Source: Takakia lepidozioides (Eukaryota > Plantae > Bryophyta). Taken from it: a stretch of 64,000 nt of DNA. The notes below the pieces were generated by a model. It was not told the DNA's origin and did no database searches. It was given only the letters and a program-made list of their open reading frames with translations. The position numbers and the translations under genes are program-made. The stretch covers positions 87,110,001 through 87,174,000 of the forward strand of contig CM060731.1 of the NCBI GenBank assembly GCA_030704615.1. The letters are read 5' to 3'. Positions 4,761 to 26,912 of this stretch are shown one piece after another; position 1 is the first letter of the stretch, and each line of letters begins with the position of its first letter.

Positions 4761-7700
4761 ATGCAGAACATGTTTGCATGCCTAACAGGAAAGGTGGACG
4801 TGCTGGAGGGATCGCAGGAATCCGAAGAGCCGCAGGAAGAGTCCGAGGAGCTAGCTGCAGCACGTACACCCACCCGATCCCCGAGCGCGGGTATTCCTGC
4901 CGGGCCTAGCCCTGTGCGATTCAAAGACGCGTCTTCGAAGGGCAAGTTCAAAGCCCCAGAGATCGACTCGCGTTCTTCGGTCATGGAGAATCGCCAGCAG
5001 GGGTCGGGCCCTTCTCCAGCAAAGTCGAAGAAGAAGCAGCCCGTCCCTCTACTGGCTTCTGAACCGGCTCAGGCCGATTCACCCCCCCCAACGCGAATGA
5101 AGCAGCAGGGTAGAAGACAGATTCAATTGCAGCAGACACCTTCACCTGCAAGGATGAGGAAGCAGAAGGCAATCAGGGCGACGGGCGAACAATCTCCCGC
5201 AAAACCGCTTCCACGAGCTGAAGCTCAGTTCCTGGAGGATTTCCCGCCTGCAGATGTTGGGGCCGACTCTGCTGCAGCGAAGGCAATGGGATCGACCGTT
5301 GATCTCGATTTGGTACCGGAGGAGGGTGCTGCCGCTCAACGTTCGCAGCAAGACCTCACCACCGATGAGCAAGCAGGCCCGGAGGAGGCCTCTGCAATGG
5401 CAGAATTGCCCGCAGACAGGCCCCAGAGTGCAGCTCCAGTTGAGGATGCTCCAGCTGCTCAGCCACTACCGGCACCTACAGACATGTCTCCGGAGGATTT
5501 CAAAAGTGCAGCGGATAAAATGTTGGAGGAGACACACAGTAGCATTGGCAGAGTTTCTGGGCAGCAGGGTATTCCAGCGGACTCTTCGAATCCCACTCTG
5601 TCGCATGGTCTCCCTTCCCATCGTCAGGCAGGCCCTTCCCGGAGATGTGGATAAGCTCAAGTTCGCATTTCGAGAAGGGTACCGTCTGGGATCGGCAGCG
5701 TTTTACGTTTCCATTGAGAATGAGGACGGCGAAACTCGTGGACCCACTGCCGATGAATTGTCAACGTGGGATACCCACTGGCACACTCGCAACCACGAAT
5801 TCGAGGCGACGCTGAAGGGTGATCCAGACTTCGGCCATATGTCGGGTAAAATGTTCTTTGTGTGGGACGGGAATCACCGACTTCTCGCCTGGTGGGAGTA
5901 CATCAAGCAGAACCATGCCAAGCACATTGGCTGGCATTACATGGTGGAGTGTGTCATCCTCAAGGTGAAGGCGGCAGACTCCTCCCTGCTCAAGAATGCC
6001 ATGGCGGACCTCAACTCGTAAGATACTCATACCCTCCTAGCACGTTCGAAATGCGGTGCCGCATTTCGGTTTCCATTCTGGTTTGTTTCCGTGCTTCCGT
6101 GTACTGAACTGGAGAGTGTGCCTTGCAGGGTCACTGAGAATGCGTACGTGCATACCCACATGGCACATATGCTGTACAGGGTGAGGAAAACTGGTCTCAC
6201 TGATCCGCAGATGTTTGCGGAAATGCTGGAGCCCGAGCTCATTCAGAAAGCCGTTGCAAAAACAGACCGGACATGGTATCGTCTCACTATGGATGGAATG
6301 GTGGAGGTGATATACGAAGTAAGTCGTCCCAATTTCCCTCTGCTCATCCTTCCCCAATTTTCAGTAATGTTTCCACATGAATCGAATGTAACGCTTCTGC
6401 ATGTTTTTGTTGGCAGTCAAACATCAAGCTGGATTTGGCCCATGCCAAACGCTTCTTCATGGAAAGTGAGGGGCAGGTCAAAACGTTGCAGTCATTGACT
6501 GAGCACTTGAAGGAAGCCGGTGTCAAGTCCAGAACCAAATACGTCAAAGCTTGTGAAGCTGGTGGCAATTGCAGATCCGGCACTTGGAAAGGACTTCATC
6601 CCCGAGATTGCAAAACACTATTCTCGGGCCATGCAGCCGACCATGCAATTGGAGAAACTGCATCACCTCTCAACGGCATGTGTGGAGGCGAAAGAGAAGG
6701 TGAGGTTTCAATGCACTGAAGTTCCTTCCTAGCAATAGCCACTCTCTTCCAGCTCCTGACATTGGATCGGAAATGGCAGACACGGTGGCTGTCGATCTGG
6801 AATGCATCCGAGAGCATAAGGACAATGTGGTCTTTTCCACTCGAAGTTTCCGACCCTGCAGTGGATGTGTGGCTCAACCGTATGACTTGGTGGTTCCAGG
6901 TAATTCAAGGTACTTCCCCAGATTTGCTTTTCTGAAATGAATTCCCTGAACTGCTACGTGACAATGCATTTGGGAATCGCAGGTAATGTCGAATGCGAAG
7001 GAGCAAGTCGTAATGCACACAAATTCGTTCGGCTTGTACGTCAAATGGGATGGAACACAGACATTGGAAGACTACGTGACACGTTTCAGATGTGCGTACA
7101 AGGACAACCTTTTCGCCAGAGAGCTAGACAGCAAGAAGGAGCGTGGAGTTTACACATCAGGAGGGAGCGGGGAAAGCTGCAATGCGAATTGTTTACAGGT
7201 GAAGCACAGCTGCCCTTGTATGCGAAGCCTGGTTACGAGGTTTGTCTCGGAAATGCGGCACCGCATTCGCATTTTATGTTTTCGGTGCACTCTGCGAGTA
7301 GGTTGGTCTCAACTTTTGCTCACGCATGCTGACTGCCTTGCAGGTATATGAAATACGTGCTCCTTCAGACAGGGGCCCCTGGCTCAAGAGCCCCGTTCTT
7401 CATGGCTTGGACCGTGGCGGGCCCAAGCTGTGTCTACACACCCGAGATGCAGAAACAATGGCATCCCGCGCATCTCGTTGGATGCCCGTGGTACCTGGAC
7501 ATGTCTGGCGGTATTGTTGACGAGTCTGAGAAAGATCTGCACGCCTTGGCAGAAGAGAAGAGAAAGGAAAGACGTGTCCCTGCTGGGCCAAAGTCGGCAA
7601 GGAATCTGCTGCTCTGGAAGAATCCAGAAAGGCAGCTGAGATGGCACAAAAGACGGTGGATGCAGCTGTGCAGGCCCAACAGAAGGGGTCGAAGAAGAGG

Positions 7701-9700
7701 ACTCGCCAGCAAGGAGCAGCTGTTGTGACACCCGCCAAAACGAAGAAGCAGAAACAGCCTGTTCAGGAAGAGGGTGAGGAAGAGGACTCCGATGGAGACT
7801 TTGCAACCAGCCCACCCCCCCAAACGCAGGCTGCCTCCCCTGTGCCCACCGTTGTCACGAGAGGCACGAGAACTGGCTCGGCAAAGAAGGCACTCTTCAA
7901 CCCCCCAGGGGGGCACCCTTTCGAGCCGGTGGAAAATGAAGAGGCCGAAAGTGGCTCCCGAAACAGTAGTCCAGTGTGTAAATGAGAGTTTCTTGGCGGC
8001 TTTGGATGGACGGGCAGCCAAGTTGGCATACATGAAGACCATGGAGGGTCTGAAGGGCAGAGCACTGAAGAAGGCGACTGCCGAAGAGCCTTCCGACACC
8101 CCAGGATTTCAGAATATGGTCTCGTTCTTTGAGAGGGTGTGTGCAGACAAGGATTGTAGGAGGGGCGGAAATGCCACGAGTGGTCTTGCGATATGATCAT
8201 CTTGGATATTCCGGACGGGAGCCTGTGGAAGGACTGCAAGCTTTGCCATCTTGGAACAGGTACTCGGAGGACTTTGGAAGAAAGGATTCGGGCTTGCCCG
8301 CATGGTGTTGGACGACAGAGGCTGTGTGGTTGTCCTGGCGAGCAGAGGAAAAAACACTCAGACAGGAATTGCGAAGTGGACCCGCAAGAGCGCCGTCCCG
8401 ATTCTGAAAAAGAAGTGGACGTGCATCAACACACTGGGCCTTCGGTCGGAAGGGAAGAAGGTGATTACGACACTGGCACTCGTCCATTCATTTGCTTGGG
8501 TGTTTTCAAATGCGGTGCCGCATTCGGTTTCTAATCGTTTTCCCCCTGTGTATGCAGACGAAGCAGTTCGATGCATACTGCTTTGTGAAGGAGAACTCCA
8601 CCTTTGCTTTCCGGAAGGAGGGAGGAAAGGTTGACCCGAACTGCGACCCACTCGATTACGACGTTCTGTTCAACAACGTTCCCAAGGAACTTCTCCCTCA
8701 TAGCCTCACTTCAACGGAACCCCTGCGGTACTCACGGACTCGGAGCCCTGCCTTCATTCAGACAATTTGGAGACATGCACAGACGTGGAGGGCACAGTGC
8801 TCGACCTCATCTGTGGGACAGGTATGCAGAATCTTGATCTATGCTGTTCTGCAAATTCTCGTTAGGATGTAGTTCGCAACATCTGAAGCGCCATGTGGTA
8901 ATGTGTGGATGGCATTGTAACGGTGCCTCAATGTGGGCTGGGCGGTTTTCCGACCGGCACCTCTTTGCCTACGAGGAGGATTCATCCGTGTGGGGATCCC
9001 ATCTGGAAGGGCTGCAACGGAATGTTAAGGCTCCGACAGAGCGGAAGTCTCCTCGGATTCGTCGGAGTCCGAGGAAGACACAGTGGACATTGATGCGGAG
9101 GAGAACCCGGAATACGAGTGAGTGCAAACATTGTAAGTTTGCAAGCCTTCTGGGTCATTTATGTCAAACGAATTTCCCGACTGTGGTTCTCATTAGTCTC
9201 GTTGATGATTGTCATGTGCAGGATTGCAGGGTCCGGGTCGAAACATGTAGGGCCTACACTTCCTGCCAGGAAGAATGTCCCGTTCTTTGCGAGGGCCGAC
9301 TTCATGACGAGCCGGTGAGGGACTACTCCCTTCCTAGTTATGCAGCTAAACTCGCAAATACAGCGATTAGAAGAAGTGAGAATCCCAGTAAAGTAGAGCA
9401 GATTTTGGAGAGGGCTAGGGAGGACAGAAGGATAAGGAAAGAGTTGGCAGCAGCTCAGACAGGTAGACGGGTACGAAAGTACATATGTGATTCAGCGGAT
9501 GAGAGCGACGCAGACAGGGAGGAAGACGACCCAACGGAGGTGAGATGGACAGTTCCGCAAGGGAAGATGGGATTTTCGAAAGCCTGGCCAACGAGCAGTC
9601 CGCTGGAGATGAGAAAGGCACTGAGGGGGTGGAGGCGGAGCAGGACAGTCTAGAACAGGATGAGGATTCGGATGATTTTCAGATTATAGAATTTAATGAA
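4761..9700 (+). CDS. Family A accessory gene: low-complexity N-terminus + ParB-like domain + beta-class N6A/N4C methyltransferase-like domain (multi-exon, frameshifted in this assembly)
   Basis: FFVWDGNHRLLAW (~5850-5895), MIILDIPDG (8193), YSRTRSPAFIQT...VLDLICGTG|ASMWAG..DRHLFAYEED (8730-8980). GT-AG introns e.g. 6018-6128, 6319-6416, 7199-7343, 8461-8557. Start and end approximate. Confidence 0.8.
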
Positions 9701-9821
9701 GTCTCTGTAAATGTAAATTCTCTTCCAGAAGTATATAAAGGAAATTCTGCCAGACATTCGTGACCCCTCTCCAGTGTGCATTCCAGCCACACAATCGCTC
9801 AACCACGACTCTCCCAAAATC

Positions 9822-10582
9822 AGAAATGGGGCACCGCATTTCCAAAATTTTGGCAACTCTAAGAACCTCTTTTGGACATGCGACACCCGCATTTCCAAAC
9901 AGGGGAGGGACTAAATTTCCATTTCAATGTTGGCATAGTAAAAAGTAATCGGCCGATTGGAAATGCGGTGCCGCATTTCCAAAATTTCCTTTGTCCACAC
10001 GCCAGTTTTGGCCTCTCCCGCTCATTGCATGGATGCCACCACGCTTACAGAGGTCGAACAAGGAGGTCGAACAAGGGGTCGAGATGGCGGAATTGAAAAT
10101 GCGTTGCCAGCATTTCATATTGGGGATGGTCGTTGTTCTAACTGCAGGCCCATCACCAAAAATTGGCACCGCATTCCATTGTAAAAAAAAAGTCGATGAC
10201 GGACATGGAAATGCGGCGCCGCATTTCCAGAACGGACATCGCAATTTGTCCATTTGCAGACCCTCTCCGGAAATGCGGTAACGCATTCCATCGCGCTGGT
10301 CGGAAATTCACACTTTTCGAAGTGTTGGACGGAAATGCGGCACCGCATTCCCTTGTCCAAAAAGAAGTTTCCATTGCCAAGCTGGAAATGCGTCGCCGCA
10401 TTTGCAATGCCAACCTCGTTGTCTGTCCATTTATAGACCCGTGTTGGTATTTTGTGTACCTGGACGGAAATGATGCACCGCATTTCCTTGTCCCACATGG
10501 AATGCGGTGGCGCATTTCATTGTCCCACATGGAAATGCGGTGGCGCATTCATTGTCCACAGGAAATGCGGTGCCGCATTTCA
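9822..10582. repeat. Distal array of the family A palindrome
   Basis: About 11 copies of GGAAATGCGGNNCCGCATTTC variants, e.g. at 9959, 10207, 10331 and 10561. Confidence 0.9.
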
Positions 10583-10837
10583 ATGTCCGACATGGCGTTA
10601 CTCTTGTATATTCTTGACACATGACTCACATACCGGTTACTCTGCTATATTCATCCGGACAGACACATTGTAGAAATGAGACATCAAATTGTAAACAGTG
10701 GGCCAATTCCGACAGTTATTCAACAGATTGAAACACAATCATACAGAAGTGAGGTACGATGGGTTTATTGATCGGACACGATGTCTCACATTTACCAACT
10801 GCAGACAAACTAAGCCCTTCCTCCTTCTACATGGGCT

Positions 10838-11445
10838 TCACCAAGTCGACGGAACTTCGATACCCCTCAAAACAAGCTCATCACTGCTGCGGCACCTCGA
10901 GGTAAACTGCAATTGGTCGTTCTGCTGCCCTTGCTGGAGCCGACGACAATGTCATGTCCATCAATGATACCACCATCATAGATTGACAAGGTCACTGTGG
11001 GCCTCATGTGCCCGGTGATTCGTCTTTGCAACTCAGCCGAATGTCTCCATACACTGGAAAGCGGAGTGATCTGCACGTATATAGTTTTCCCCGTGCCGTC
11101 CTCCCTGTCCACTGGCAGCAGTTCCAGCGCCAAAGCGAGGCCGTGCGTGATCTGTCCGGCATCCCTTTCCAGCTTGGTATATCGAGGTCAACAATTGTCA
11201 GGACCCACGGACCGCATTGACCCTCGCCCTCACCTCGCTCAAAGCGGTAATAGCCCTCCAGATACTCCATTGCGCGCAAAGACTCTTGCTTGATTCCAGC
11301 AGCGTCTGTGAAAACAAAGAGCCAGACAATGATGTCTCCTGATTCTAGTTTGAACATAGCATATCGTGGCCATGATAAGGGCAGTCGGCTGGATTTCGGC
11401 GGCACGGCATCCTTGAAAAAGAGTAGCGGAGTACGCTCAATGATA
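10838..11445 (-). pseudogene. Family A small cargo gene 1 (unknown domain), frameshifted copy
   Basis: Pieces in ORFs 11004-11405 and 10867-11133 match the intact 204-aa ORF at 25492-26106. Confidence 0.7.
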
Positions 11446-11667
11446 GCAGCTCCCGGATGGAGGAGGAGCAGCGCGGTGGCTGGAAAAAGTTCAAGCTAAC
11501 GCTGCAATTCGTCACAAACACTCCAGGGCACATTTAAATTCCCCCCCTATAGGATCCTGGACCGATGAAGATTGGCTACTTCATGAATGTAGCCGTTTCA
11601 GTTTCCTACCCTGCCATGCAAACTATGGGCACTCACTGCCAGGTGGGCCGATAGCCACTGGACACGA

Positions 11668-11731
11668 CGAAGTCCATCCCCTCTTCGATGTAAATGCGGC
11701 GCCGAATTTCCATCCGGGGGGATGGACTTCG
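11668..11731. promoter_or_regulatory. 64-bp imperfect palindrome between the divergent cargo genes
   Basis: CGAAGTCCATCCCC...GGGGATGGACTTCG arms enclosing AAATGCGGCGCCGAATTT; conserved in copy A2 at ~26328-26391. Regulatory role is inferred. Confidence 0.55.
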
Positions 11732-11794
11732 GTGGCAGATCTCAAACTATAACTTCTTGATGAGAAAGATGTATGGGTTCATCCACCTCCGTCG

Positions 11795-12505
11795 GTGGGT
11801 ACGTGGGACCCAGATGCTCCATTATTGGAGGCCGGACTGCTCTTCCGCTTCGCATCATTTCCAAAATCTAAGGGCTTCGTAGCTGTCTGCAAGGTCATTG
11901 TCATCTGCATCCAAGTCGTCCTCAGGTCCTCCTTTGCAAGGATGCCGTGCTTCCGGAACCGGGACGACTGCCCATTTGGAGGCATCGATTATGCAATGTA
12001 TTCGGCCACATCGGGAGACATTGTTATCTGGTACACATATTACACAGAAGATACTGGTTCGATTGTGGAAACATTGGTGGCTTTTGAGTATATCGTAGGC
12101 CACTATGCCTTTGAGCGGGGTGACGATCTTGGTCTGAGGAGTCCGTGGCTCCTGCGCATCCTCGATTCCGATTTTCCTAGCTACGACGGTCACCCATGCA
12201 GAAGAAGGCGCACTGCTATGTTGTTGCGGTGGAACTGCTGCCACTGGACGTGGGTGGACTCCATCGGAGAGACCTATTCTCCTCAAGGAGTGCGCTCCTC
12301 TTCTCCATTGTATGGGGACATTCGCATTGGTGTGGACGACGAAAACGTGAAGATTTCCATATTCGATGGTGGTATGATTGAAGGGCAGGACATTGTGGTG
12401 AACATCACTAGGGGCGGTACAACGGCTGCAATCGACTTTACATGGAGGAGCCCCATGACTCATGAGCTAGTTCTGAGAGCAGTCGAAGTCCCATTGACAA
12501 CGTGA
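11795..12505 (+). CDS. Family A small cargo gene 2 (unknown domain; paralog of cargo gene 1)
   Basis: Open 236-aa frame (likely ATG at 11942). Shares SGDIxxW, FERG, PW, RTAxLxRWNCCxWT, YGDIR, DGGMIxGxDIVV and ELVLRAxEVP with the opposite-strand ORF. Confidence 0.7.
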   Translation: MGTWDPDAPLLEAGLLFRFASFPKSKGFVAVCKVIVICIQVVLRSSFARMPCFRNRDDCPFGGIDYAMYSATSGDIVIWYTYYTEDTGSIVETLVAFEYIVGHYAFERGDDLGLRSPWLLRILDSDFPSYDGHPCRRRRTAMLLRWNCCHWTWVDSIGETYSPQGVRSSSPLYGDIRIGVDDENVKISIFDGGMIEGQDIVVNITRGGTTAAIDFTWRSPMTHELVLRAVEVPLTT

Positions 12506-12834
12506 CTTGTATTCAGTAGGCACAGGGCTAAAGATTTGATTGCACAATCAGCACAGTAGACGTGCTTCAAATGCAATTCATGTGGATCAATAAAAACCTC
12601 ATTGTGCCCTCTTTTTATTCTATTCTGTGTCCATCGTTCCTAGAATGCGTCATTGCTCATTTCGTTTGGGATTGGGAGTGTGGGTGGATTTTGCAAGTGG
12701 CTGGTAGGCTGAAATGGGCCCCCATTGTACAGAGCAGTACCACCCTACCATTCGCGAAACATTGCCTTTCAATATATAATTCTAAATAACATTGCCGAAC
12801 CTCCTTCATCGGGAGGTCCTTCTCCCCCTATGAC

Positions 12835-12961
12835 CGTGGCACCCTAAACCCTATTCCCGCGGACACTCATTTCCGGAAAATAGTGCTGCTCATGTTTTTT
12901 TCCACACTTACGACTCTGCTCATGGCTCATGCCGCTCATGGCTCATGAAATAGCAGCCCCC
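12835..12961. repeat. Family A terminal inverted repeat with subterminal GCTCATG repeats
   Basis: GCTCATGGCTCATGCCGCTCATGGCTCATGAAATAGCAGCCCCC; near-identical copy at ~47645-47773. Confidence 0.85.
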
Positions 12962-14366
12962 GTCTCACCATGCCACCGAGCTCCAGTGTCATCCTGCTGG
13001 CTCGTGCATGGATTGCGACTCAACCCATCTGCATTGCGATTGACCAAACCCGGTCGATGCACCACCTGGAAGTCATACTCTTGAAGGATGAGTGCCCACC
13101 GTGCAAGCTTCCCCATAAGCTTGTCTGACTCCATCAACCACTTGAGTGGTTGGTGATCCGTGACAAGGGTGAAGAGATTGCCATATAGATAGCACCTGAA
13201 GTGTGCCACGGCCCACACTGCAGCTAAGCATTCTCCCTCATATGAGCTATAGTTAGACTCTGCAGCATTGTTCGAGCGGCTAGCATAAGCCACTACGAAC
13301 TCTCTTCCCTCATCATCCACCTGTGTGAGCACCGCTCCAAGCCCCAACATGCTCCAATCTGTATGCAGCTGAAAGGACGCCCCCTGATAGGTCGTCTCAA
13401 GATGGGCGCCGAGGTCAACCTCGCCTTGAGCTCTTGAAAAGCTTGTTCTTGCTCATCTTCCCACTGCCACTCCTGGTCCACCTTGGTCAGCTTGGTTAGA
13501 GCCTTTGCAATGGCACTGAATCCCTTAACAAACCGTCTGTAATAGTTTGCTAACCCCATGAAAGCTCGAACTCGGCTCACATCCGTGGGGCGTGGAACCT
13601 GTGCAATGGACTCTACCTTAGTCTGCTGTACCCCCAATCCTCCAGGATATATCATGTGACCCAGATACTCAATCTGGTTGTGGAAAAACTTGCACTTGCC
13701 CGGATGTAACTTCAATCCGTGCGTCGTTAAGCGCTCAAATACCCCCTGAAGGTGTCTCTCATGCTCCTCCACCGTAGCACTAAAGATGATGATGTCATCT
13801 ATGTAGCACCGAGCAAACTCCACCCCTGCTAGAATCCTGTCCATGACTCTTTGAAACTCAGCGGGAGCGTTTTTAAGCCCAAATGGTAAGAACCGCCACT
13901 GGTATAGGCAATCCTTCCCGTGCTCATTGATCCCCCAGAATGCCGTCTTTTGCTTATCCGCCTCCTTGATCGGCAACTGGTGATATCCGGATCGTAAATC
14001 CAACGTGCTAAAGACCTTGGAATGCCCAATGGCATCAAAGATCTCCTCTGGTGTTGGCATGGCATACCTATCGGACTTGGTCTGACGATTTACAGGCCGG
14101 TAATCACCGCACATACGTCTCTCCGTCCAATTGCCATAGACATCCTTCTTAGCTGGCATCACTGTGGCTGAAGCATACTCTCCACCAGAGAGCTCCACCA
14201 AACCTGCCTCCCAGAGATCTTGAGTCCTCATCTGAATCAAAGACCTCTCCATGTCACTGTATCTATAGGGTCTCCGAAAGATTGGCGTGTCAGTGGCCAA
14301 CTCAATACGGATCTCTTGACCCTTCAGTGCTCCCAAGTCCTTCAAACTGAAGGCAAAGCAATTCAT
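12962..14366 (-). CDS. Ty3/gypsy reverse transcriptase + RNase H (frameshift ~13370)
   Basis: [31 protein letters not shown]; RNase H VVAYASR, YEGECLA, TDHQPL, NADGLSR. Confidence 0.93.
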
Positions 14367-14504
14367 GTAAGCCCTCAGGAACCGCCGTATACATCGTCTC
14401 TCTCCTCCGGTGACAATGGGTCTAATGTCAGGCTCCCAATTGTCCTCCGTAACTGCAACCTTAAGTCCAGTGGGCTTAGGGGTAGAGGACGCGTCCCGTG
14501 GTTG

Positions 14505-16205
14505 CTATGCTGCAACCTCTTGAGCAGTACTTCCTTCCTGCTCAGTCAATGACAAGGCCTCATCCTGCCCCATCATCTCATCATTGAGAACCTCCTCATC
14601 CCGAGAAGAATCCCCAACCTCATCCATCACAGCTGCCTTGGCTGCCATCTCCCTTTGGACCTCGAGCACCTCCCACGTGTGCCATGGATGTCTACACCCC
14701 GTGGTCCTCACCGGCTCGCCCCCACTCGCTGCCTGTACCGTCTCGGTAGGCAGAGAGTCCATGAAGGGGAGTGCACTCCGCACTCTACGTTGCTCAGCCA
14801 TAGCCAAGCTGATAATCCAAGTCAAGCAATTGAGATCCATTGCTTGCCCCAACACTTGACGCCGTGATGTCTCAGAAAGAGAAGGCACCCCCGTGGTCCC
14901 AGTGGAAAACCCCGTAGCCCGCTCTCGCTCGTCGGCATTAGGCTCCACTAACTGCTGCAACTGGCTATCCCACAAGAGGCCAGGTCCACCATCCCGAAAA
15001 GCATGTGATCCTGGGAAGCTGAGCAGTGTAGGTAATGCTGCTCGTGGTTGATCCACCCTGTTGACCACTGCCAAAGGTGAACGGTCATCGTGTCTCACAC
15101 GTTGAGACTGCCTCCCTGTGTCCAAAATGTCATCCACGGTGAGGTGTGCTGGCCGCGGCACCCCATCATATGCACGCTTGAGCAGTGCGTGTGGCATCAA
15201 GTTAGTCCACCAAAGCCGTGGACGATGAGCCCGTGATCCCACTGCAGCTGCATCCAGCAGCACTGCTGACCCAAGCCACGACCGGACTTGATGCACACTG
15301 GCCATCACCCTGGCCCGAGAATCACCCATCAGTGGCACATTCTCCAAGATGTATGCTGGAGATACAGCTTGATGAAGCTGCAAGTGGCGCAAAACCCGCA
15401 CCATCTCCCAAAACAGACCCGTCCTCGAGTCTCGCAATCCATTGCCATGCCCGGCTGATGAATGCCCTTGGCAGGGCCAACCTGCCACTATCAGATCAAT
15501 GGAGCCAACCTGCTCCAAATCTTGCGCCCCCAACAAGGAAATGTCTGCTGGCAAGGCTTGTTGGTATCCACGAACTACAGACACAGGCAACAAGTCAGGG
15601 TATTGCTGTACCAACTGAGCAACATGGCGCAGTGAGACGCGTCGTGCAGTCTCATCCCTCTCCACATACAGGTAACGTCGAACTCGTACACTTGCCTGTA
15701 GCACAGCAGCCAATCCGGTGCTGATCCCGCCAAACAAGTCCAGAAGGCAAATGCCTTCATCCGGATACTGCCACACAATAGGTGTGGTATCCAATGGTGA
15801 CAACTGAGGTGGTCCTGGTGCAATACCCGCACTCTCCTCCTCTCCTGACGGAACAAAAGCCTCTACCCAGGCTTGTTGCACCCGTCGATCAGCAACCTGC
15901 TGCAAATCCTTGCTCGTACCCCACAATGGAGTGTGAGTAACCATGGCAGGCAACTCCGCCATACCATGCATGTCATCCTGCTCTGCTGGAGGTGGCACAT
16001 CCTCTGCATGGGCATTGCCTTCTAGCAACTCTCCAGGCCAACTAACTGCAGCTGTAAAGGCGGCTAGTGTTGGCATCTTGCCCCGCTGGGCAGCCGCTAT
16101 ACCCCCAATGAATGTCATAGGGAGCTGTGCACGGCGACCATCGCCTGACTGCCATCCAGGCCTGTAGGATGTTGACTCCTCCCAAAAGTCCAGGGTGAAG
16201 CCCAT
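14505..16205 (-). CDS. DNMT3-like C5 cytosine methyltransferase domain inside pol
   Basis: Motif I LDLFGGISTG, IV GWPCQGHS, VI YILENV, VIII AHRPRLWWTN, IX ERERATGF and X RRQVLGQAM, in canonical order. Confidence 0.92.
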   Translation of the reverse strand: MGFTLDFWEESTSYRPGWQSGDGRRAQLPMTFIGGIAAAQRGKMPTLAAFTAAVSWPGELLEGNAHAEDVPPPAEQDDMHGMAELPAMVTHTPLWGTSKDLQQVADRRVQQAWVEAFVPSGEEESAGIAPGPPQLSPLDTTPIVWQYPDEGICLLDLFGGISTGLAAVLQASVRVRRYLYVERDETARRVSLRHVAQLVQQYPDLLPVSVVRGYQQALPADISLLGAQDLEQVGSIDLIVAGWPCQGHSSAGHGNGLRDSRTGLFWEMVRVLRHLQLHQAVSPAYILENVPLMGDSRARVMASVHQVRSWLGSAVLLDAAAVGSRAHRPRLWWTNLMPHALLKRAYDGVPRPAHLTVDDILDTGRQSQRVRHDDRSPLAVVNRVDQPRAALPTLLSFPGSHAFRDGGPGLLWDSQLQQLVEPNADERERATGFSTGTTGVPSLSETSRRQVLGQAMDLNCLTWIISLAMAEQRRVRSALPFMDSLPTETVQAASGGEPVRTTGCRHPWHTWEVLEVQREMAAKAAVMDEVGDSSRDEEVLNDEMMGQDEALSLTEQEGSTAQEVAA

Positions 16206-18709
16206 GGGGGGTATAACACTGCCCCACCAACGAGGACATCGTAAGAGACTGCGTCTGTCACAATGGCCTTGGCTCGCATTACTGAGCCATCGATAGGATG
16301 ATTCGGCTGCAGTCTAATGGCCAACTGATGCCGTGTCATGCCCTGAGCCTGCTCTGATCCTCCCAGAGATGTCTGTATCTGGAAAGGACAAGGCTCCATA
16401 TCCGCCTCCATGAGGCCCAAACCTGCAATAGCAGCTCTGCCCAACATCAGTGGCTGAGCTCCTGAGTCCAACAAGACCCGCAGTGGCTGGTACTTCTTGC
16501 CTGCCGGTCCACTCAAAGTGAAAATGCCTCCCTGGTTGTCTAACAAGACAACTCCAGGTGTCACCGTGGCGCGCTCAAAGGCTGGCCTAGCTAGCAGCTC
16601 CGTCAATCTGGCAGCTGCAGCTTGCCAGGGCGCTGCCGTGGCAGTCTTGACCCTCAAATCCGAGGATCCCTTTGCCACTACACCTTCCACTAACTCTGCA
16701 GAAGATGAAGTGACCTCTCCACTCTCGCAGAGTGTTGCTGCTAGTCTGAACACTGCAGCTGGTCTCACTCCCGGCGTCGCAATCATGGTTGCCGAGAACA
16801 GTGGGGCTTGACACACAGAGGTGGCTGCCCCCAACAACACACCGGCTGCACTAGCCTTGGCAGCAGGTGTCAGTGCTGCACGTGTAGCTCTCCCCAATGG
16901 CATAGAAACCTTCGCCTCGGTAACAGTCGGGCGAGAACTAGGTGCCATGGATGGCGTTGACATTGTCTCCACCAAGGTGAATGACTGAGGCAGCCTCGCT
17001 TGACGGCTTGCCTCCCCACGTTGTGGATCCAACTCCACCTCTGCACCTCGTGGCTCAGGAACTCGTGCTGCTCCTCGAGTCACGGCTGCAGCAGACTCCA
17101 CCTGCTCTAGTGGTAGTGCTGCTCCGCACATGAATCCCATGCCTCCCATATCTCCTTCCTCAGGAGCAGGAGGTGGACCATCCCGCCTGGGAGCCGGTAC
17201 CGCCTGAGCTATAGCCATGGCAGCGAGCCTCTGCTCTAGCTGCTGAAGCCGATTGGCCATGCCTTGGTCAACACCCTGACCTCCGCGTCCTTGGCCATAT
17301 GGAGCTTGCCCTTGGCCTGCACCTCGTGCCCGACCACCTCGTCCTCTTCGGGATGGTCCACCTCGCCCCCGGCCACCATTGTTCCCTTGGAACTGGCCTG
17401 GGCGCAACTCAGGATGCAAGTCATAACACTGGGCATCTCCATGCCCATACTTGCCACAATGCCCACACTGCAACTGTGCAGGCTGTGCTTGTGCCGGCCT
17501 TTTGCCACTCTCTGGGCAATCTCTCTTGACATGGGGTCCTCCACATGTCCAACATATCACCCCTGGTTGCTGTTGGCCTGCAAAAGATGCCACGGGCCTC
17601 TGCACCTGAGGTCCCCTGTAAGCTCCATGGAACTTGGGTTGGGAAACCTTGCCCCCCTGACCACGCTGTTGGGCAGTCCCTTGAGCCTGTGGGCTGACAG
17701 CTGTGCCCCGTGCAGGCATGTCCTTGCCAAATCCAATTGTAACAACTCGCTCCTCCACCATGTTGAGCTCAATCCGCTCAGCCAGCAGAAACACATCTGC
17801 TAATGTGGGTTGGGCTGCTTGTAATAGGGTTGCATCTCGCACCCTTCTCTTGAGCTCCTTGTCCAGAATTCCATACCAAAACTGGATTGCCTGAGCTTTA
17901 GTAACCCCTTGGGTCACACTTATCAAGCGCCTCATACGAGTGTACGCCTCTCGCAGGCTCTCACTGGGTTTGCGCTGGAAGTCTTGCAAACTTCGTAGCT
18001 TCTCTGTCCGTACACCTTGGTAGTTCCTCCGCAACTCCTGGAAGAACTCCACCACCGGGTTGAATCTAGGCACATGTGTTGTAGTTGTGGCAGGAGGAGT
18101 AGTAGCACCTTTTGAACTGGTACCACCTGCAGAAGTACCAGCACTACTTGCTCCACTACTAGTGCTGGCAGTGGGAGCTATTGGTACTGATGCAGCTACT
18201 GGTCGCGTCGTGCCTCGAGTAATGGAGACGTAGTCAGGTGACCAATACATCCTCCACTCCTCAATCTCTGCTTCATGTCCTCGCCTGAACTCGTGGTAAT
18301 CGTCTATAGGCGGGCCTTCCAAATGCTGGAACAGTCCCTTCCACGCCATGAATGGGGTGAATAGCTGTGGATTGCGCATCTGCTGCAAATCACACCAGCT
18401 GTCGAACTCCTGGATAAAGTCATCCAACTCAATTGTGCCCACAGCTCCAGAGTACCTACGAGGCCCCTTGGTAGCTCCATACATCTCCTCCATGTCGTCC
18501 CACAACAATGGCGAATGAAAGTGCACACCTGTTGATGAAGCCTCCGAGTTTGTGTCTGACTCTACAGTAATTGAGGGTGGCGGTGAAGGTGGTCTGAACC
18601 GAATACCTCGTCTTGTGAACCCACTCTCACTGTTACTGCCTGTAGCCGTACTCCCCTCAAAACCCTTGGGTAACTCCGTAATGACACTCACAATGTGCAC
18701 CTCCTCCAC
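16115..18709 (-). CDS. Gag (two zinc knuckles) + aspartic protease
   Basis: 864-aa ORF: gag-like FQRKPSESLREAYTRM, CWTCGGPHVKRDC, CGHCGKYGHGDAQC, and protease LLDSGAQP. Confidence 0.88.
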   Translation of the reverse strand: MEEVHIVSVITELPKGFEGSTATGSNSESGFTRRGIRFRPPSPPPSITVESDTNSEASSTGVHFHSPLLWDDMEEMYGATKGPRRYSGAVGTIELDDFIQEFDSWCDLQQMRNPQLFTPFMAWKGLFQHLEGPPIDDYHEFRRGHEAEIEEWRMYWSPDYVSITRGTTRPVAASVPIAPTASTSSGASSAGTSAGGTSSKGATTPPATTTTHVPRFNPVVEFFQELRRNYQGVRTEKLRSLQDFQRKPSESLREAYTRMRRLISVTQGVTKAQAIQFWYGILDKELKRRVRDATLLQAAQPTLADVFLLAERIELNMVEERVVTIGFGKDMPARGTAVSPQAQGTAQQRGQGGKVSQPKFHGAYRGPQVQRPVASFAGQQQPGVICWTCGGPHVKRDCPESGKRPAQAQPAQLQCGHCGKYGHGDAQCYDLHPELRPGQFQGNNGGRGRGGPSRRGRGGRARGAGQGQAPYGQGRGGQGVDQGMANRLQQLEQRLAAMAIAQAVPAPRRDGPPPAPEEGDMGGMGFMCGAALPLEQVESAAAVTRGAARVPEPRGAEVELDPQRGEASRQARLPQSFTLVETMSTPSMAPSSRPTVTEAKVSMPLGRATRAALTPAAKASAAGVLLGAATSVCQAPLFSATMIATPGVRPAAVFRLAATLCESGEVTSSSAELVEGVVAKGSSDLRVKTATAAPWQAAAARLTELLARPAFERATVTPGVVLLDNQGGIFTLSGPAGKKYQPLRVLLDSGAQPLMLGRAAIAGLGLMEADMEPCPFQIQTSLGGSEQAQGMTRHQLAIRLQPNHPIDGSVMRAKAIVTDAVSYDVLVGGAVLYPPWASPWTFGRSQHPTGLDGSQAMVAVHSSL

Positions 18710-19228
18710 GTGACACTATAAGGCTCTAGTACTAATCTAATAGTGACACGGGTGGGCACTTGTTGCAGTTTAAGGGTCATATCCCAATGGCTCAGGGCAC
18801 CTGCACCTGCATCCACCGCAAAAACTCTTATGGTTGGCTGGTCCTCAACCCAGCCTCACCATAGAAGAAACACTGGTGGTCTTGCTGGTCATCACTCCAG
18901 CCTCACCACCGACAGCATACTCTAGGATTGACCGGTGATCAAATCCGGCCTAATCCCTATGAAAGCAAGCGCCCACACAAAACCAACATGGCGCACAGTC
19001 AAGCATGCAGGTGTTGGGGGGGATCCAAACACAAGAAATCAAAACATCAACACCGCCACACCAAAATCCAGCTGCAATGTTGATCCTGCAGAATAGCCCA
19101 GCCCAAAACCCCGGACTGACTGGCCTCCACCAAGAGAGGCTTTGGCAACTACAAGTACATGGTAATGAAAATAGTACAGAGATGGAGGGGAAGAATATAA
19201 GCCCAACCAAGCAAGATCTAATCCTGAT

Positions 19229-19978
19229 CTATGCTATCAACTGCCAGACTTCTCTCAAAGTGCCTCGCTCTGCATGATGGTAAGGTGTAGGAGGTATATC
19301 TATGTCCAGAAACCTGCCACTAACCTTGTCCCAAGCTACAGTAGCTCGCTCTAACCAACCCTCCTCCTCTTTCTGCCAGGTAGAGACAAAGCAATACTCC
19401 CCTATCTCCCGCTCACTGAATACTAAAGAAAACAAAGGTAGGGTCTGATAGTCTCTCAACTCGAAAGCTTTGAGACGGTTGCGGGTGTCCTCATTGCGAA
19501 TGACTGCATCTCCTTCACGCACAACAAACATGTCATTGCTGATGAACCCCCGCTCGTGGTTGCCCTGTGCAGAGCGTATCCGGCTGCAACCATGTCTGAT
19601 TGCACAAACTTGTGTAGCTCCTGCTCCTCTGCTCCAGTACACCACGGCCTTGTGGCTGAACACCTTGGTCCCCGGGGCTGTCTTTGGCTGTGTTCCAAGC
19701 CTAGCTTTCACCCACTTTGGTGTTTCACCTACAGCTGCAGAACTGCTGGCTCCAATAGAGTTCTGACTGTCCAAGGCGATATTGAGGCCCTCAACGCCAA
19801 CTACAGCAGTTTGTTGTCCACTACTAATGCCTGACTCCCAGTATGCAATCAACTCGTCCAACTGTTCTCCACTCAAATCAGTTTGAGTTCCTTGGGAAAC
19901 ATAAATCTTGTCCCCTTTGGTGCACAGGCTAAGAGAAGAGACCTGCCCTTCAATCACGTCCTCATTTCCCCCAGCCAT
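19229..19978 (-). CDS. Uncharacterised 249-aa ORF upstream of gag
   Basis: Open ATG-started frame on the same strand as gag-pol; no recognised motif. Confidence 0.4.
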   Translation of the reverse strand: MAGGNEDVIEGQVSSLSLCTKGDKIYVSQGTQTDLSGEQLDELIAYWESGISSGQQTAVVGVEGLNIALDSQNSIGASSSAAVGETPKWVKARLGTQPKTAPGTKVFSHKAVVYWSRGAGATQVCAIRHGCSRIRSAQGNHERGFISNDMFVVREGDAVIRNEDTRNRLKAFELRDYQTLPLFSLVFSEREIGEYCFVSTWQKEEEGWLERATVAWDKVSGRFLDIDIPPTPYHHAERGTLREVWQLIA

Positions 19979-21149
19979 ACAAGGAGTACATCCCCAGATT
20001 TATCTCTCATGTAGACCAGAACAGGTTCTAGAAACATGATTGTGGATCTTTCATGGCACACTCACACTCTAAAAATTCCATAGATTTTTAGCAGAGTCCA
20101 AAAAACAGAAACCAGGTCTAGATAGGTAGATTTCCCCTTTCTGCAGCTATCCCTTCAAAAACTGAGTCAAACGGAGCCCATTTGACAAAGATATGACCAA
20201 CCAGGCTATTTAAACATAACATTTTTTTATTTTATTTTTTTAATAAGACAAAACAAATACAAAGAAAACTCTATTGTCTTGGTTCCCTGTTCCCTGGTTC
20301 CCTGGTTCCCTGTTCCTGTATATGTGCCCAAAGTTCTAAATTGGTATCAGCGGCTCTTAGGTATTGTTCATATTCGCCTGGCAGCCGTCGTCTCCGTGGC
20401 GAACGCAGCCCGCCAGTCTCCCGCAATCCTGTCAGCTCAACTTGAGCAACACAGATCGTTCTCGTGCAGGCACCATGATAGCTCCAAAACTATGGGCGGC
20501 CCAGGAAGACGACGTCTCCTCACTTAATGAGAACGCTGAGTGCAAAAGGACAATGGTATAACGGACAGCTGAAAGCGGCTCACAGTAAGGCCGGGGAGGC
20601 TATCTTTTGGCAAAGCAATTCAAACGTTCATGCACAAACTAGTACCAACCCTGGACGAGTTCCCTGGACGCGTCTAGACTCCCCACCAAGCATGCTTTGC
20701 CCTGCTGGAAAGGGCTGACCCGACCCATTCACTTCTTCAAGCACAGAAAGAGAAGGAAAATCCCTTGGTGACGAAGGACTTGGTGCTTGAGGTGCCTGAA
20801 ACTGCTTCGATGGGCCTCCCTCAACATTGGTCTGAGCCTCTTCCTTCTCAGCTGCTGCCTGAGTCTGCAAATGCTGCACGCAGCATGCTCCTAACTCCCA
20901 CCTTCAATTCTTAGCTTGCATGTCTTACTTTGTCAGTCTCTTGCTTGTTGCTCCCACTGCTGCTAGGCTGGTGATGCATATCTGCAGAGGACCAGCAGCT
21001 CCCTCCCATGTGTGGAGCACCCCTTCTTGAGTCCATCCCTCATCCATTGTACAGTTATGATGTCTATATAAGAGGTGGGAAGAGATATGGCTGGTTGTTC
21101 AGGGATAAACAATGTTGCAATGAGGCAGCTGCAAGCTGCCAAATCAAAG

Positions 21150-21780
21150 ACTTAGATGGCCATCAGCTCCTTTGGTTGTGCCCTGTTTCTTTCACGCTCA
21201 AGCTCTCTCTGAATGGTCTCTTCCTGAGCTGACAGTGCCCAACCTGTCGACTTCTCCACATTCTCTTTCACATCTCTACCGTCAGGTTGCTCTACCGAGA
21301 CATCGCCGCTCCCGCTTCTTCCTGTTCTTAACAACGTCCTCTGCCTCTTCAACCTTCAGCTTCTCTTCTTCTCTCATGAGAGGTTTGCAATCCAGTGGGT
21401 TCTCCTAAATATTTTGCAACTTCCCATTGTCATTTCCGCTGGGAACTGCACCATTCTCAGAGATCCATTTGTCTCGAATGCTTTCAAGTAGAGCTCGGCT
21501 GGACGGTTCTCATTCTGCACCTTCACATACCGGCATTGTAGCGGCTTGCGTACAAAGCGTAGCCTCATACTCTGATAATCCTGTCTTGAGACACCAACGT
21601 AATATAGAATCTTTTCCTCATAAAAAATGGCATACACACTTGCCTTCGAGTCAGGTTTGCTGCAATCTGCAATCGTACCCTCCTCAGTCAAGAATGCTAC
21701 GAACTCGAGATCACTCAAAGATAAAGCGTTTCCACCCACTTGTGCCTGTCGCCTTCGCAGTGCATCTTGCTTCCGCCTAT
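21150..21780 (-). pseudogene. Decayed intronless copy of a plant/cyanobacterial-type GIY-YIG domain gene
   Basis: ASVYAIFYEEKILYYVGVSR..MRLRFVRKPLQCRYVKVQ. After a frameshift: ENGAVPSGN..(stop)ENPLDCKPLMREEEK. Confidence 0.6.
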
Positions 21781-22059
21781 ATTCTTCTTGTGCCTGGAAT
21801 GTGAGCTGCCGTGTTTGTCTTGGTGTTCATCGGTTGCTGCCAGTTTTTTACTTCCACGTCCTCCATTATCCGAATTTTGTTGTCTGCTTTCCCATCTAGA
21901 TCCATGTACTCCGCAGCTTTCATCTTCTCCTTGATTTGCCTTGTGTACTCCAAAGCCTCTGGTGACTTGGTAGCTTCAGCGACTGCAACAACAGTGACGG
22001 CTCTAGCATCATCATCCGCCAGGCGTTTCAAGGCACGCTGAATCTTGTGGTCACATTCA

Positions 22060-22521
22060 ATGATATGCTTCTCAAACTAAGCACTACTTACACACAAGTA
22101 ATCTTGCAAGTGCTAACCCTCAACTCCTACCTTGCACTCACAGGTAAGAGAGTCATCTTTCTCGAGTGATAAGAAAACTAGAAAACACACTGCTCACACC
22201 AGAAACAACATGAATCCATCGCTATCACTCTTTAAAACAGAAGTCGAGCCAGTGGCACCCCAAGCTATGGGGACTCCACCCCACAAAAACCTACACTCCC
22301 ATCATAAGCACACTCAAATCTAAACGCATGAAGGAGCTCGGTCGCGCAGGCTCAACTCGAGAAAGATGAGCCGCGCGACTGCCGCTCTCGTGAAGATAAG
22401 ACGGACCAGGTGTCAAACTAAACTTGACACCTGATTTAACACTTGACCTAAATCCAAGTGTTAAATACAAATAACTAGTTTTATTCTAGCTGTTTTCACA
22501 CTGTGCTTATTTAACTTGACA
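22060..22521. mobile_element. Possible LTR remnant abutting A2
   Basis: AT/AC-rich non-coding tract ending TTGACA exactly where homology to the family A accessory gene begins (22522); left end not found. Confidence 0.3.
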
Positions 22522-24223
22522 CATGCCGCGCATCTCATTGGATGCCCGTGGTACCTGGACATGTCTGGCGGAATTTTTGACGAGTCTGAGAAAGATCTGC
22601 ACGCGAAAGCAGAAGAGAAGAGAAAGGAAAGACGTGTCCCTGCTGGGCCAGAGTCGGCAAAGGAAGCTGCTGCTCTGGAACAATCCAGAAAGGCAGCTGA
22701 GATGGCACAAAAGACGGTGGATGCAGCTGTGCAGGCTCAACAGAAGGGGTCGAAGAAGAGGACTCGCCAGTTAGGAGCAGCAGTCGTGACACCCAAGAAA
22801 ACGAAGAAGCAGAAACAGATAGAGCAGGAAGGGGGTGACGAAGAGGACTTCGATGGAGACTTTACAACCAGCCCACCCCCCGAAACGCAGCCGAAATCCC
22901 CTGTGCCCACCGTTGTCACGAGAGGGACGAGAACAGGCTCGGCAAAGAAGGCACTCTTCAACTATTACGACATTGGCACTTGTCCTTTCATTTTCTTAGG
23001 TGTTTTGAAATGCGGTGCCGCATTCAATTTCTAATCGTTCCCCACTGTGTATGCAGATGAAGCAGTTCCATGCATACTGCTTTGTGAAGGAGAACTCCAC
23101 CTTTGCTTTCCGGAAGGAGGGATTGTTGGTTGACCTGAACTGCGACCCCATCAATTACGACGTCCTGTTCAACAATGTTCCCACGGAACTTCTCCCTCAT
23201 AGCCTCACTTCAACGGAACCCCTGCGGTATTCACGGACTCGGAGCCCTGCCTTCATTCAGACAATTATGGAGACATGCACTGACGTGGAGGGCACAGTGC
23301 TCGACCTCATCTGTGGGACAGGTATGCAGAATCTTGCTCTATGCTATTCTGCAAATTCTCCTTATGCTTTAATTCGCAACATCTGAAGGGCCATGCTATA
23401 ATGTGTGGATGGCATTGTAACAGGTGCCTCAATGTGGGCTGGGCGGTTTTCCGACCGGCACCTCTTTGCCTACGAGGAGGACACATCCGTCTGGGGATCC
23501 CATCTGAAAGGGCTGCAACGGAATGTGAAGGCTCCCATCAAAGCCAAAGACTCCTCGGATTCGTCGGAGTCGGAGGAAGAGATAGTGGACATTGATGCCG
23601 AGGAGAACCCGGAATACGAGTGAGTGCAAACATTGTAAGTTTGCAAAGCCTTCAGGGTGATTTTTTGTCAAATGCATTTCCGGACTGTGGTTCTCATTGG
23701 TCTCGTTGGTGATTGTTATGTGCAGGATTCCAGGATCCGGGTCAAAACATGTAGGGCCTACACTTCCTACCAGGAAGAATGTCCCGTTCTTTGCGAGGGC
23801 CGACTTCATGACGAGCCCGGTGAAGGACTACTCCTTCCTAGTTATGCAGCTAAACTCGCAAATACAGCGATTAGACGATGTGAGAATCCCAGTAAAGTAG
23901 AGCAGATTTTGGAGAGGGCTAGGGAGGACAGAAGGATAAGGAAAGAGTTGGCAACAGCTGAGACAGGTAGACGGGTGCGAAAGTTCATATGTGATTCAGC
24001 GGATGAGAGCGATGCAGACAGGGAGGACAACGACCCAACGGAGGTGAGATGGTCAGTTCCGCAAGGGGAAGATGGGATTTTCGAAAGCCTGGCCAACGAG
24101 CAGTCCGCTGGACATGGTGCCGCATATCCATTTTTGACACGGCAGTTTTGCCGATTGCCAGCTCCTTCCATGGAGGTAAATGGAAATGCCACCCCGCATG
24201 CGGAGGTCGACCATGGCGGACAT

Positions 24224-25203
24224 GGAAATGCGGTGCCGCATTTCCATTTTGGAGATGGACGTTTTTCCAACTGCAGACCCATCGACGGAAATGCGGCTCC
24301 GCATTTCATGATGCTAGACGGGAATGCGGCACCGCATTCCATTGTCCAATAAGAAATTTTGATGACGTACATGGAAATGCGGCGCCGCATTTCCAGAACG
24401 GACATCGTTGTTTGTCCAATTCCAGACCCTTTGACGGAAATGCGGCACCGCATTCCATCGTGCTGGATGGAAAGGCGGCACCGCATTACATTGTCCAATA
24501 AGAACTTTCGATTGCCAAACATGGAAATGCGGCGCCGCATTTCCAAAACAGACATCGTTGTTTGTCCAATTCCAGACCCGTGTGGGCATTCCGTCTTGTT
24601 GGACGGAAATGCGGCACCGCATTCCATTGTCCAATACGAAATTTTGATGACGGACATGGAAATGCGGTGCCGCATTTCCAGAATGGACATCGTTGTTTGT
24701 CCAATTCCAGACCCTTGGACGGAAATGCGGCACCGCATTCCATCGTGCTAGACGGAAATGTGGCACCGCATTCAATGGTGCTGGTCGGAAATGCGGCACC
24801 GCATTCCATTGTCCAATAAGAACTTTCGATTGCCAAACATGGAAATGCGTCGCCGCATTTCCAAGGCCCACATTTGTCCAATTCCAGACCCGTGTGGGTA
24901 TTCCGTCTAGCTGGACGGAAATGCGGCACCGCATTCCATTGTCCAATACAAAATTTTGATGACAGACATGGAAATGCGGTGCCACATTTTCAGAATGGAC
25001 ATCGTTGTTTGTCCAATTCCAGACCCTTCGACGGAAATGCGGCACCGCATTCCATTGTCCAATACGAAATTTTGATGACAGACATGGAAATGCGGTGCCA
25101 CATTTTCAGAATGGACATCGTTGTTTGTCCAATTCCAGACCCTTCGACGGAAATGCGGCACCGCATTCCATTGTGCTCTCCGGAAATGCGGTGCCGCATT
25201 CCA
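24224..25203. repeat. Expanded family A palindrome array with higher-order tandem units
   Basis: About 19 palindrome copies; recurring spacers AGAA(C/T)GGACATCGTTGTTTGTCCAATTCCAGACCC and ATTGTCCAATA. Confidence 0.93.
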
Positions 25204-25491
25204 TTGTCCATTTCCGAGCTTCGGCATGTACATGTTTCATTTTACTCATACATGGATTTCCTTCACCTCAGGACTCTGATATCGCTGACTCTGGTATATT
25301 CATATGGACAGACACATTGTAGAAATGAGACCACAAATTGTAAACAGTGGGCCAATTACGACAGTTCTTGAACACAATGAAACACAAGCACACAGAAGTG
25401 AGGTACGATGGGTTGTTTTATTGATCGAACACGGTGTCTCACATTTAGCAACTCCAGACAAATCTAAGCCCTTCCTCCTTCTACATGGGCG

Positions 25492-26106
25492 TCACCAAGT
25501 CGACGGAACTTCGATAGCCCTCAAAACAAGCTCATTACTGATGCAGCACCTCGAGGTAAACTGCAATGCGGTCGTTCTGGTGCCCTTGGTGGAGCTGACG
25601 ACAATGTCATGCCCATTAATCATACCACCATCATACATTGACAAGGTCACTGTGGGCCTCATGTGCCCGTGCGATTCGTCTTCGCAACTCAGCCGAATGT
25701 CTCCATACACTGGAAGAGCGGAGTGAACTCCACGAATATAGTTTTCCCCGGTGCCGTCCTCCCTGGTCCACTGGCAGCAGTTCCAGCGCCAAAGCGAGGC
25801 CGTGCGTGATCTATCCGGCATCCCATTCCACCTTGGTATATCGAGGTCAACAATTTTCAGGACCCACGGACCGCATTGACCCTCGCCCTCACCTCGCTCA
25901 AAGCGGTAATAGCCCTCCAAATACTCCATTGCGCGCAAAGACTCCCGCTTGATTCCAGAAGCGTCTGTGAAAATAGAGAGCCAGACAATGATGTCTCCTG
26001 ATTCTGGTTTGAACATAACATAATCGTGGCCATGATAAGGGCAGTCAGCAGGATTTTGGCGGCACGGCATCCTTGAAAAAGAGTAGCGGAGTACGCTCAA
26101 TGACAA
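25492..26106 (-). CDS. Family A small cargo gene 1, intact frame
   Basis: 204-aa open frame paralogous to 11795-12505. Confidence 0.7.
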   Translation of the reverse strand: MSLSVLRYSFSRMPCRQNPADCPYHGHDYVMFKPESGDIIVWLSIFTDASGIKRESLRAMEYLEGYYRFERGEGEGQCGPWVLKIVDLDIPRWNGMPDRSRTASLWRWNCCQWTREDGTGENYIRGVHSALPVYGDIRLSCEDESHGHMRPTVTLSMYDGGMINGHDIVVSSTKGTRTTALQFTSRCCISNELVLRAIEVPSTW

Positions 26107-26912
26107 CAGCTCCCGGATGGAGGAGGCAGCAGCACGGTGGCTGGAAGAAGTTCAAGCAAACGCTGCAATTCCTCACAAACACTCCAGGGCACATTTAAAT
26201 TTCCCCCCTACAGGAACCTGCACGGATGAAGATTGGCTGCTCTATGAATGTAGCCGTTTCAATTTCCTTCCCTGCCATGCAAACTATGGGCAGTAAGTGC
26301 CAGGTGGGCCTATAGCCACTCGAGCCGACGAAGTCCATCCCCCCTTCGATGTAAATGCGGCGCCAAATTTCCATCCGGGAGATGGACTTCGGTGGTAGAT
26401 TTCAAACTATACCCCGTGGATGAGAAAGAGGTATCGGTTCATCCACCGCTAGTGTGATGAACACGTTACACGATGATTGGTGGGTACGTGGGACCAAGAT
26501 GCTCCATTATTGGAGCCCGCACTGCTCTTCCCCTTCTCATCATTTCAAAAAATCTAAGGGCTTCGTTGCTGTCCGCAAGGTCATTGGGCATCAAAGACGT
26601 CCTCAGGTCCTCCTTTGCAAGGATGTCGTGCTTCCGGAACCGGGACGACTGCCCTTATGGAGGCTTCGATTATGCAATGTATTCGGCCACATCGGGAGAC
26701 ATCGTTATCTGGTACACAGTTTACACAGAAGATACTGGTTCGAATGTGGAAACATTGTCCGCTTTTGAGTATATCCCAGGCCACTACGCCTTCAAGCGGG
26801 GTGACGATCTTGGTCTGAGGAGTCCGTGGCTCCTGCGCATCCTTGATTTCGATTTTCCCAGCTACGATGGGCACCCATGCAGAAGAATGCGCACTGCTAT
26901 GCTGTTGCGGTG

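Follow-up and report, generated by a model that had tools for sequence, protein, structure and literature searches.

A truncated Ty3/gypsy retrotransposon carrying a DNMT3-type methyltransferase in a land-plant genome, from a family whose conserved stop codon is likely leaky

Results

The window, by which we mean the whole 64-kb stretch of DNA analysed here, holds on its minus strand a retrotransposon of a high-copy Gypsy-DNMT3 family, in a copy that is truncated and no longer functional. The recognizable parts of this copy are the following.

12961..20207, minus strand: internal part of a Ty3/gypsy DNMT3 element, truncated at both ends; edges set by a drop in contig depth and loose contig ends (20207) and by an abutting repeat (12961)
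19229..19978, minus strand: extra ORF of 249 aa upstream of gag, linked towards gag by contigs of runs X6 (18806-19978) and X7 (18637-19242 and 19275-19981)
16206..18493, minus strand: Gag, whose two Cys/His knuckles lie at 17554 and 17467, and aspartic protease (PR; LLDSGA at 16474), within frame 18715-16115
16200..16212, minus strand: frame break between protease and methyltransferase (DNMT), seen as a tblastn frame change against Marchantia protein P0003 and as an indel at 16206 in contigs of 4/4 runs
14790..15764, minus strand: DNMT3-type C5 cytosine methyltransferase domain by Pfam, PDB, structure model and motifs; non-permuted, intronless, all catalytic motifs present
14499..14507, minus strand: in-frame TAG (14507-14505) with CAA CCA directly after it, an exact fit to the type I motif UAG-CAR-YYA; also in related lineages
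13375..14504, minus strand: reverse transcriptase (RT), in frame after the stop (PF00078, E 1.6e-32; YIDD at 13805; frame 14504-13293)
12961..13374, minus strand: RNase H (RH), cut off at 12961 (PF17917, E 1.1e-36; frame 13452-12943)

The order Gag-PR-(DNMT)-RT-RH fits the Ty3/gypsy order Gag-PR-RT-RH-IN, the integrase (IN) having been lost by truncation: relatives carry it after RNase H, and none was found within the 64-kb window. Both terminal repeats and the PHD finger are likewise missing from this copy. The original prediction of a Ty3/gypsy element with a DNMT3-like enzyme between its protease and its RT is borne out by the matches to PF00145, PF00078 and PF17917 together with LLDSGA upstream. 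It had also described intact catalytic motifs in an open frame of 566 aa. The motifs are intact and the frame is open (16313..14505, minus strand; 602 codons between stops and 566 counted from the ATG at 16205), but it does not stand alone as a gene, being the tail of a Gag-PR-DNMT frame cut near 16206. The Gag-PR part is 50% identical to P0003 over 780 columns, and its Pfam match to Retrotrans_gag is weak (E 0.005). A second frame break lies near 13371, before RNase H, where contigs of four runs show indels at 13371/13374 in other copies.

At the 5' edge the summed contig depth of run X1 drops from about 1-4e5 to about 1e3 over 20171-20292, and contigs of runs X1, X5 and X6 have loose ends at 20207. 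At the 3' edge the element abuts another repeat at 12961, where contigs of X6 and X7 continue with different letters. Over the coding part the X1 summed depth is 6e5-1.2e6, whereas the flank has about 1e3. Such sums do not measure copy number and are used here only to set the element against its flank; the difference marks a very abundant family. The 249-aa ORF lies within the high-depth region and has roughly half the depth seen over the coding core. It had no match in Pfam, PDB, the relatives' proteins or the best 80 of at least 253 related loci, and its single-sequence structure model was unusable (pLDDT 34). It is possibly an accessory gene of one subfamily.

The methyltransferase matched Pfam PF00145 with E 3.6e-13 and 50.1 bits, against a cut-off of 22. 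Its motifs start in the order LFGGI (15737), YVERD (15668), GWPCQ (15482), ENV (15344), AHRPRLWWTN (15230) and LGQAMDLN (14852), which we take to be motifs I, II, IV (PCQ), VI (ENV), VIII (AHRPR) and X, unpermuted. AHRPRLWWTN, earlier likened to the DNMT3 motif VIII, occupies the motif VIII place in this order. In a search of solved structures with the single sequence DNMT3A came out best, followed by DNMT3B/C, DRM2 and HhaI, and a 10-row profile against PDB gave 7.6e-19 for DNMT3A, 7e-8 for DRM2 and 1e-6 for HhaI. A structure model built from 96 sequences had a mean pLDDT of 96.3; its top Foldseek match was DNMT3A (E 8.6e-19, TM 0.69/0.83), and all listed matches were DNMT3 structures. Judged by motif order and predicted fold, the domain is of DNMT3 type. 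Across the 96 aligned sequences C115, Q116, E158, R198, R200 and W203 are each conserved in at least 90%, and across the wider family motif IV varies (PCQ, ECQ, SCQ).

Of 56 proteins found in a search for longer relatives, the top match stood at 76%; Calypogeia fissa (73%), Marchantia polymorpha models (up to 74%) and Sphagnum fallax were among those named, and three were green-algal or algal-type entries. A further search added Sphagnum troendelagicum and Marchantia paleacea, and a DNMT profile gathered 441 clusters at 50% identity (E up to 1e-30). A metagenome scan yielded at least 600 stretches, of which at least 253 were confirmed, and the best 80 were analysed as loci (L numbers); several of these repeat one insertion from another assembly, and the number of independent events is therefore below 80. 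Among these best 80 of at least 253 loci, the DNMT domain lies beside PR or RT in 76, PR precedes it in 60, RT follows it in 64 and both hold in 48; the full PR-DNMT-RT-IN-PHD run is present in 17. Three of the 4/80 with neither neighbour are contigs under 1.7 kb. The DNMT domain is a family trait, and the one-off insertion that would have refuted the original prediction is excluded.

Between lineages the dN/dS of the DNMT domain is 0.08-0.136 (seven pairs with estimable dS; three further pairs were saturated), and between two decayed copies of one family it is 0.90. The domain is under purifying selection between lineages.

For the phylogeny, 112 DNMT domains were placed in a FastTree tree rooted at the midpoint, with no outgroup and no host DNMT3 or Klebsormidium nitens rows. 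Left out were 14 rows that were near-duplicates or broken gene models, as well as rows with fewer than 245 domain residues or without a neighbouring domain. One branch (support 97) separates 37 rows with the domain before RT from 75 rows with it after RNase H, the latter including Scenedesmus and Chromochloris. The window row groups with Marchantia, Calypogeia and Sphagnum rows (support 99). One family member, P0217, is labelled Candidatus Obscuribacterales and sits on a 2.4-kb contig; it is probably plant DNA in a bacterial bin.

In the window DNMT and RT share a reading frame and are parted only by the single TAG at 14507-14505. The accessible text of PMC3542737 gives UAG-CAR-YYA as the type I stop-codon readthrough motif of tobamoviruses. 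The exact CAR-YYA context recurs in four diverged lineages (the window, L034, L025/L026 and L055), whose linkers measure 450-522 nt and whose synonymous sites are near saturation relative to the window. L025 has two open ORFs, 1369 aa of Gag-PR-DNMT and 1047 aa of RT-RH-IN-PHD, joined only by the TAG. The window belongs to a 23-row clade of the tree (support 93) in which all four rows with DNA have TAG and 18 database proteins end 29-168 residues past the DNMT domain. In a Sphagnum-like family 26/27 covering copies stop at that codon, the next most shared stop being found in 10/22; its context is mostly TAG CAA CCC (17/25 matched contexts), one base off the motif, and TAA occurs in 6/25.

No conserved stop was found in the sister family (most of L038-L080), where the best candidate reached 16/35 and fell at a Gln codon. 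P0082 and P0337 have no such stop and carry DNMT in one ORF with RT and RNase H, as do loci of the L044 type. The stop is therefore not required for carrying the DNMT domain. RNA folding 3' of the stop gave z scores of -0.3 to -1.4 in four of five lineages and -4.5 only in L055; since the strong fold is confined to L055, we claim no shared stimulator structure. From its sequence context the stop is likely leaky, and low-frequency readthrough would give an RT-RH-IN-PHD extension as a minor product. This stop and its context, like the two frame breaks and the missing ends, go beyond the original prediction.

The ends of the element have to be read from relatives, which carry the layout A-coding-PPT-B-NN-A-B (PPT, polypurine tract) and not two equal LTRs; the window copy has lost its ends. 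A CA-NN-TG junction lies 109-198 nt after the polypurine tract in 11 of the best 80 of at least 253 loci. Both ends could be located in five of these best 80, all with that layout; the located ends start with TG and finish with CA, and an exact 4-bp target duplication flanks 4/5. Such duplications point to integration by a DDE integrase, whose probable site of action is a junction restored from the internal B-NN-A copy. Inspection by eye revealed no evident tRNA primer site after A1 in the relatives.

CpG depletion was considered as proof of self-methylation and rejected. At codon boundaries the observed/expected CpG ratio is 0.31-0.39 in the window element and L025 and 0.03 in L034 (one CpG against 37 expected in L034:10763-12700). 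The other Gypsy RT in the window gives 0.77, and 3/12 other transposon ORFs in the window are equally low (0.23-0.37). The signal is thus not specific, and host methylation explains it equally well.

Other repeats flank the element. The remains of a decayed host gene, at 21826-21473, have their closest matches in proteins of Sphagnum (64%) and Ceratodon; the 118 residues fall on the moss side of a branch with support 97/94, on a long terminal branch. Judging from this one fragment the host is likely a moss, land plant being the safer statement. The land-plant host proposed earlier agrees with this placement and with the relatives in Marchantia, Calypogeia and Sphagnum. Beside the 5' break, at 20220-22100 (minus strand), a host gene of GIY-YIG type is present as a decayed copy that carries an A-rich tail and looks like a retrocopy. 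At the 3' edge, 12232-12961 and 47038-47773 are 94% alike; they represent a 730-bp repeat end that interrupts a different Gypsy element at each place, in RT/RNase H, the second Gypsy RT being cut at 47773. This end is likely the terminus of another transposon. At 7462-12231 and 22522-26912, on either side of the Gypsy fragment, lie two copies (85-93%) of a large element with GGAAATGCGGCACCGCATT-type subrepeats, both in the same orientation. This element contains an inverted pair of related ORFs of 160-250 aa (11004-11495 minus, 11753-12505 plus, 25492-26151 minus), for which no Pfam match was found. A large transposase-like gene is present in three diverged copies, at 570-2391 (minus), 38088-41812 (plus) and 43457-46870 (plus), with a C-terminal SWIM finger (weak Pfam match) and no Pfam match over 757 aa. 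Two related ORFs in transposon context, 5158-6021 (plus) and 34073-35521 (minus), share a WDGNHRL motif, presumably ParB-like, and had no Pfam match.

Discussion

Among Gypsy-DNMT3 elements the one described here is a land-plant variant, and its Gag-PR-DNMT ORF is likely gated by readthrough. The account that we consider reasonably probable is that this ORF ends at a leaky TAG-CAR-YYA, that the DNMT is packaged at about Gag level and that it methylates the cDNA before integration. ORF1, comprising Gag, protease and the DNMT3-type domain, would be made in bulk, and readthrough of the conserved TAG at low frequency would add RT, RNase H, integrase and PHD finger. The protease would then free the DNMT inside the particle, where the enzyme would methylate the new cDNA before it integrates, probably in CG context by analogy with the SymbioDIRS domains assayed in yeast. 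Self-methylation of the cDNA, which the original prediction had also suggested, keeps the rank of an inference, the Klebsormidium domain having given no methylation in yeast (PMC5890265, accessible text). Such a stop predicts far more methyltransferase than RT per particle.

It might instead be that the enzyme acts mainly in trans or after integration, free DNMT methylating integrated copies or host chromatin and so dampening its own family. Expression at Gag level would supply far more enzyme than one cDNA requires, models of host benefit and of slowing were raised by de Mendoza et al. (PMC5890265, accessible text), and de novo methylation of transgenes is ascribed to moss DNMT3b in the accessible part of PMC6453930. 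Purifying selection on each element lineage nevertheless favours a benefit in cis, and the Gag fusion would tie the enzyme to the particle; we give this explanation a small though real chance. Unlikely, in our view, is the idea that the domain has been retained for binding DNA or RNA, or for shielding, with methyl transfer incidental or absent. It would accommodate the inactivity of KnitGypsy-Dnmt3 in yeast (PMC5890265, accessible text) and the variation of motif IV, but not easily the at least 90% conservation of the six residues named above, nor the CG methylation achieved by the related SymbioDIRS DNMT3 domains in the same source.

Pol could also be reached by splicing that removes the stop, or by separate initiation, with DNMT at Gag level regardless. 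Gene models do join DNMT to RT in Marchantia (P0006, P0009, P0011 and P0015, all rows excluded from the tree) and in Sphagnum (P0029), and in P0009 and P0029 the bridge is made by skipping the stop-bearing linker. Models of this type, however, derive from decayed copies and skip different stretches; our scan found no frame-keeping GT-AG intron near the stop in the window or L001, the candidates in the other three sequences scanned are dissimilar, and what is conserved is a single stop with CAR-YYA. A spliced or separately initiated Pol seems improbable to us. That a host DNMT3 was captured here just once, or that the assembly is chimeric, is scarcely credible even though this copy is broken and flanked by other repeats: the same order is found in 48 of the best 80 of at least 253 loci and in named liverwort proteins, one X7 contig (12960-14879) runs from RNase H to the DNMT tail, and the C-terminal DUF3444 borne by host plant DNMT3s (PMC6453930, accessible text) was not found in the window by Pfam search.

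By its architecture this lineage is a variant of KnitGypsy-Dnmt3 of Klebsormidium nitens, in which the DNMT lies in the Pol ORF with RT and RNase H and whose domain gave no methylation in yeast, a result that the authors call inconclusive (de Mendoza et al., 2018; PMC5890265, accessible text). The accessible text also gives that element the Gypsy domain set and a DNMT3 that has no intron, is not rearranged and is under purifying selection, all shared here; its A-coding-B-A-B repeat plan is that of the relatives in which both ends were located. The window lineage differs in its conserved in-frame stop between DNMT and RT, its land-plant host and its high copy number, the K. nitens copies being said to be few. 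Since no Klebsormidium sequence is among the named matches, kinship to KnitGypsy-Dnmt3 rests on architecture.

SymbioDIRS-Dnmt3 of Symbiodinium, whose domains methylate CG de novo in yeast, likewise has a DNMT3 domain within a retrotransposon with split repeats, but it is a dinoflagellate tyrosine recombinase element (PMC5890265, accessible text), whereas the relatives found here have a DDE integrase, a PHD finger and 4-bp duplications. Green-algal Gypsy elements (Scenedesmus P0110, Chromochloris P0053, Monoraphidium P0055) share a homologous DNMT and a PHD-bearing integrase; their order is RT-RH-DNMT-IN-PHD, with the DNMT after RNase H, unlike the window lineage. The host plant genes PpDNMT3a/b have a DNMT3-type catalytic domain in non-flowering plants, as here, but are chromosomal genes with a C-terminal DUF3444 (PMC6453930, accessible text). 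With tobamoviruses the element shares an identical stop and six-base context ahead of the polymerase (PMC3542737, accessible text); in contrast to them, the predicted readthrough stop would gate RT-RH-IN behind Gag-PR-DNMT. A leaky gag/pol stop is called rare in LTR elements in the accessible part of PMC3441728.

We found no published report of bryophyte Gypsy-DNMT3 elements in a search that mostly excluded subscription literature; such elements are described there only for algae. In the part available, a preprint (bioRxiv 10.64898/2026.05.21.726589) speaks of 'streptophytes (Gypsy-DNMT3)' without Marchantia, moss or bryophytes, and its supplements or cited tree may include land plants. The accessible portions of PMC11982613, PMC9477723, PMC6317226 and PMC12885004 contain no relevant mention.

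Why a transposon should carry the class of enzyme that silences it has been a question since 2018, and the difficulty of working with the known hosts is part of the reason why it still stands. Marchantia and mosses, which carry such copies and for which DNMT mutants and reporters exist, make it testable. More tentatively, and with appreciable doubt, the family may form a bryophyte-wide and in places very abundant lineage in which a working DNMT3 loaded by readthrough at Gag level, premethylated cDNA and integration at a split-repeat junction by a PHD-bearing DDE integrase act together. If so, a self-methylating and probably primer-free Gypsy life cycle would be open to study in Marchantia, and such an element may feed into the host methylome. 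Annotation is affected as well: counts of bryophyte DNMTs include these element copies, and LTR finders that require two equal LTRs would miss such elements.
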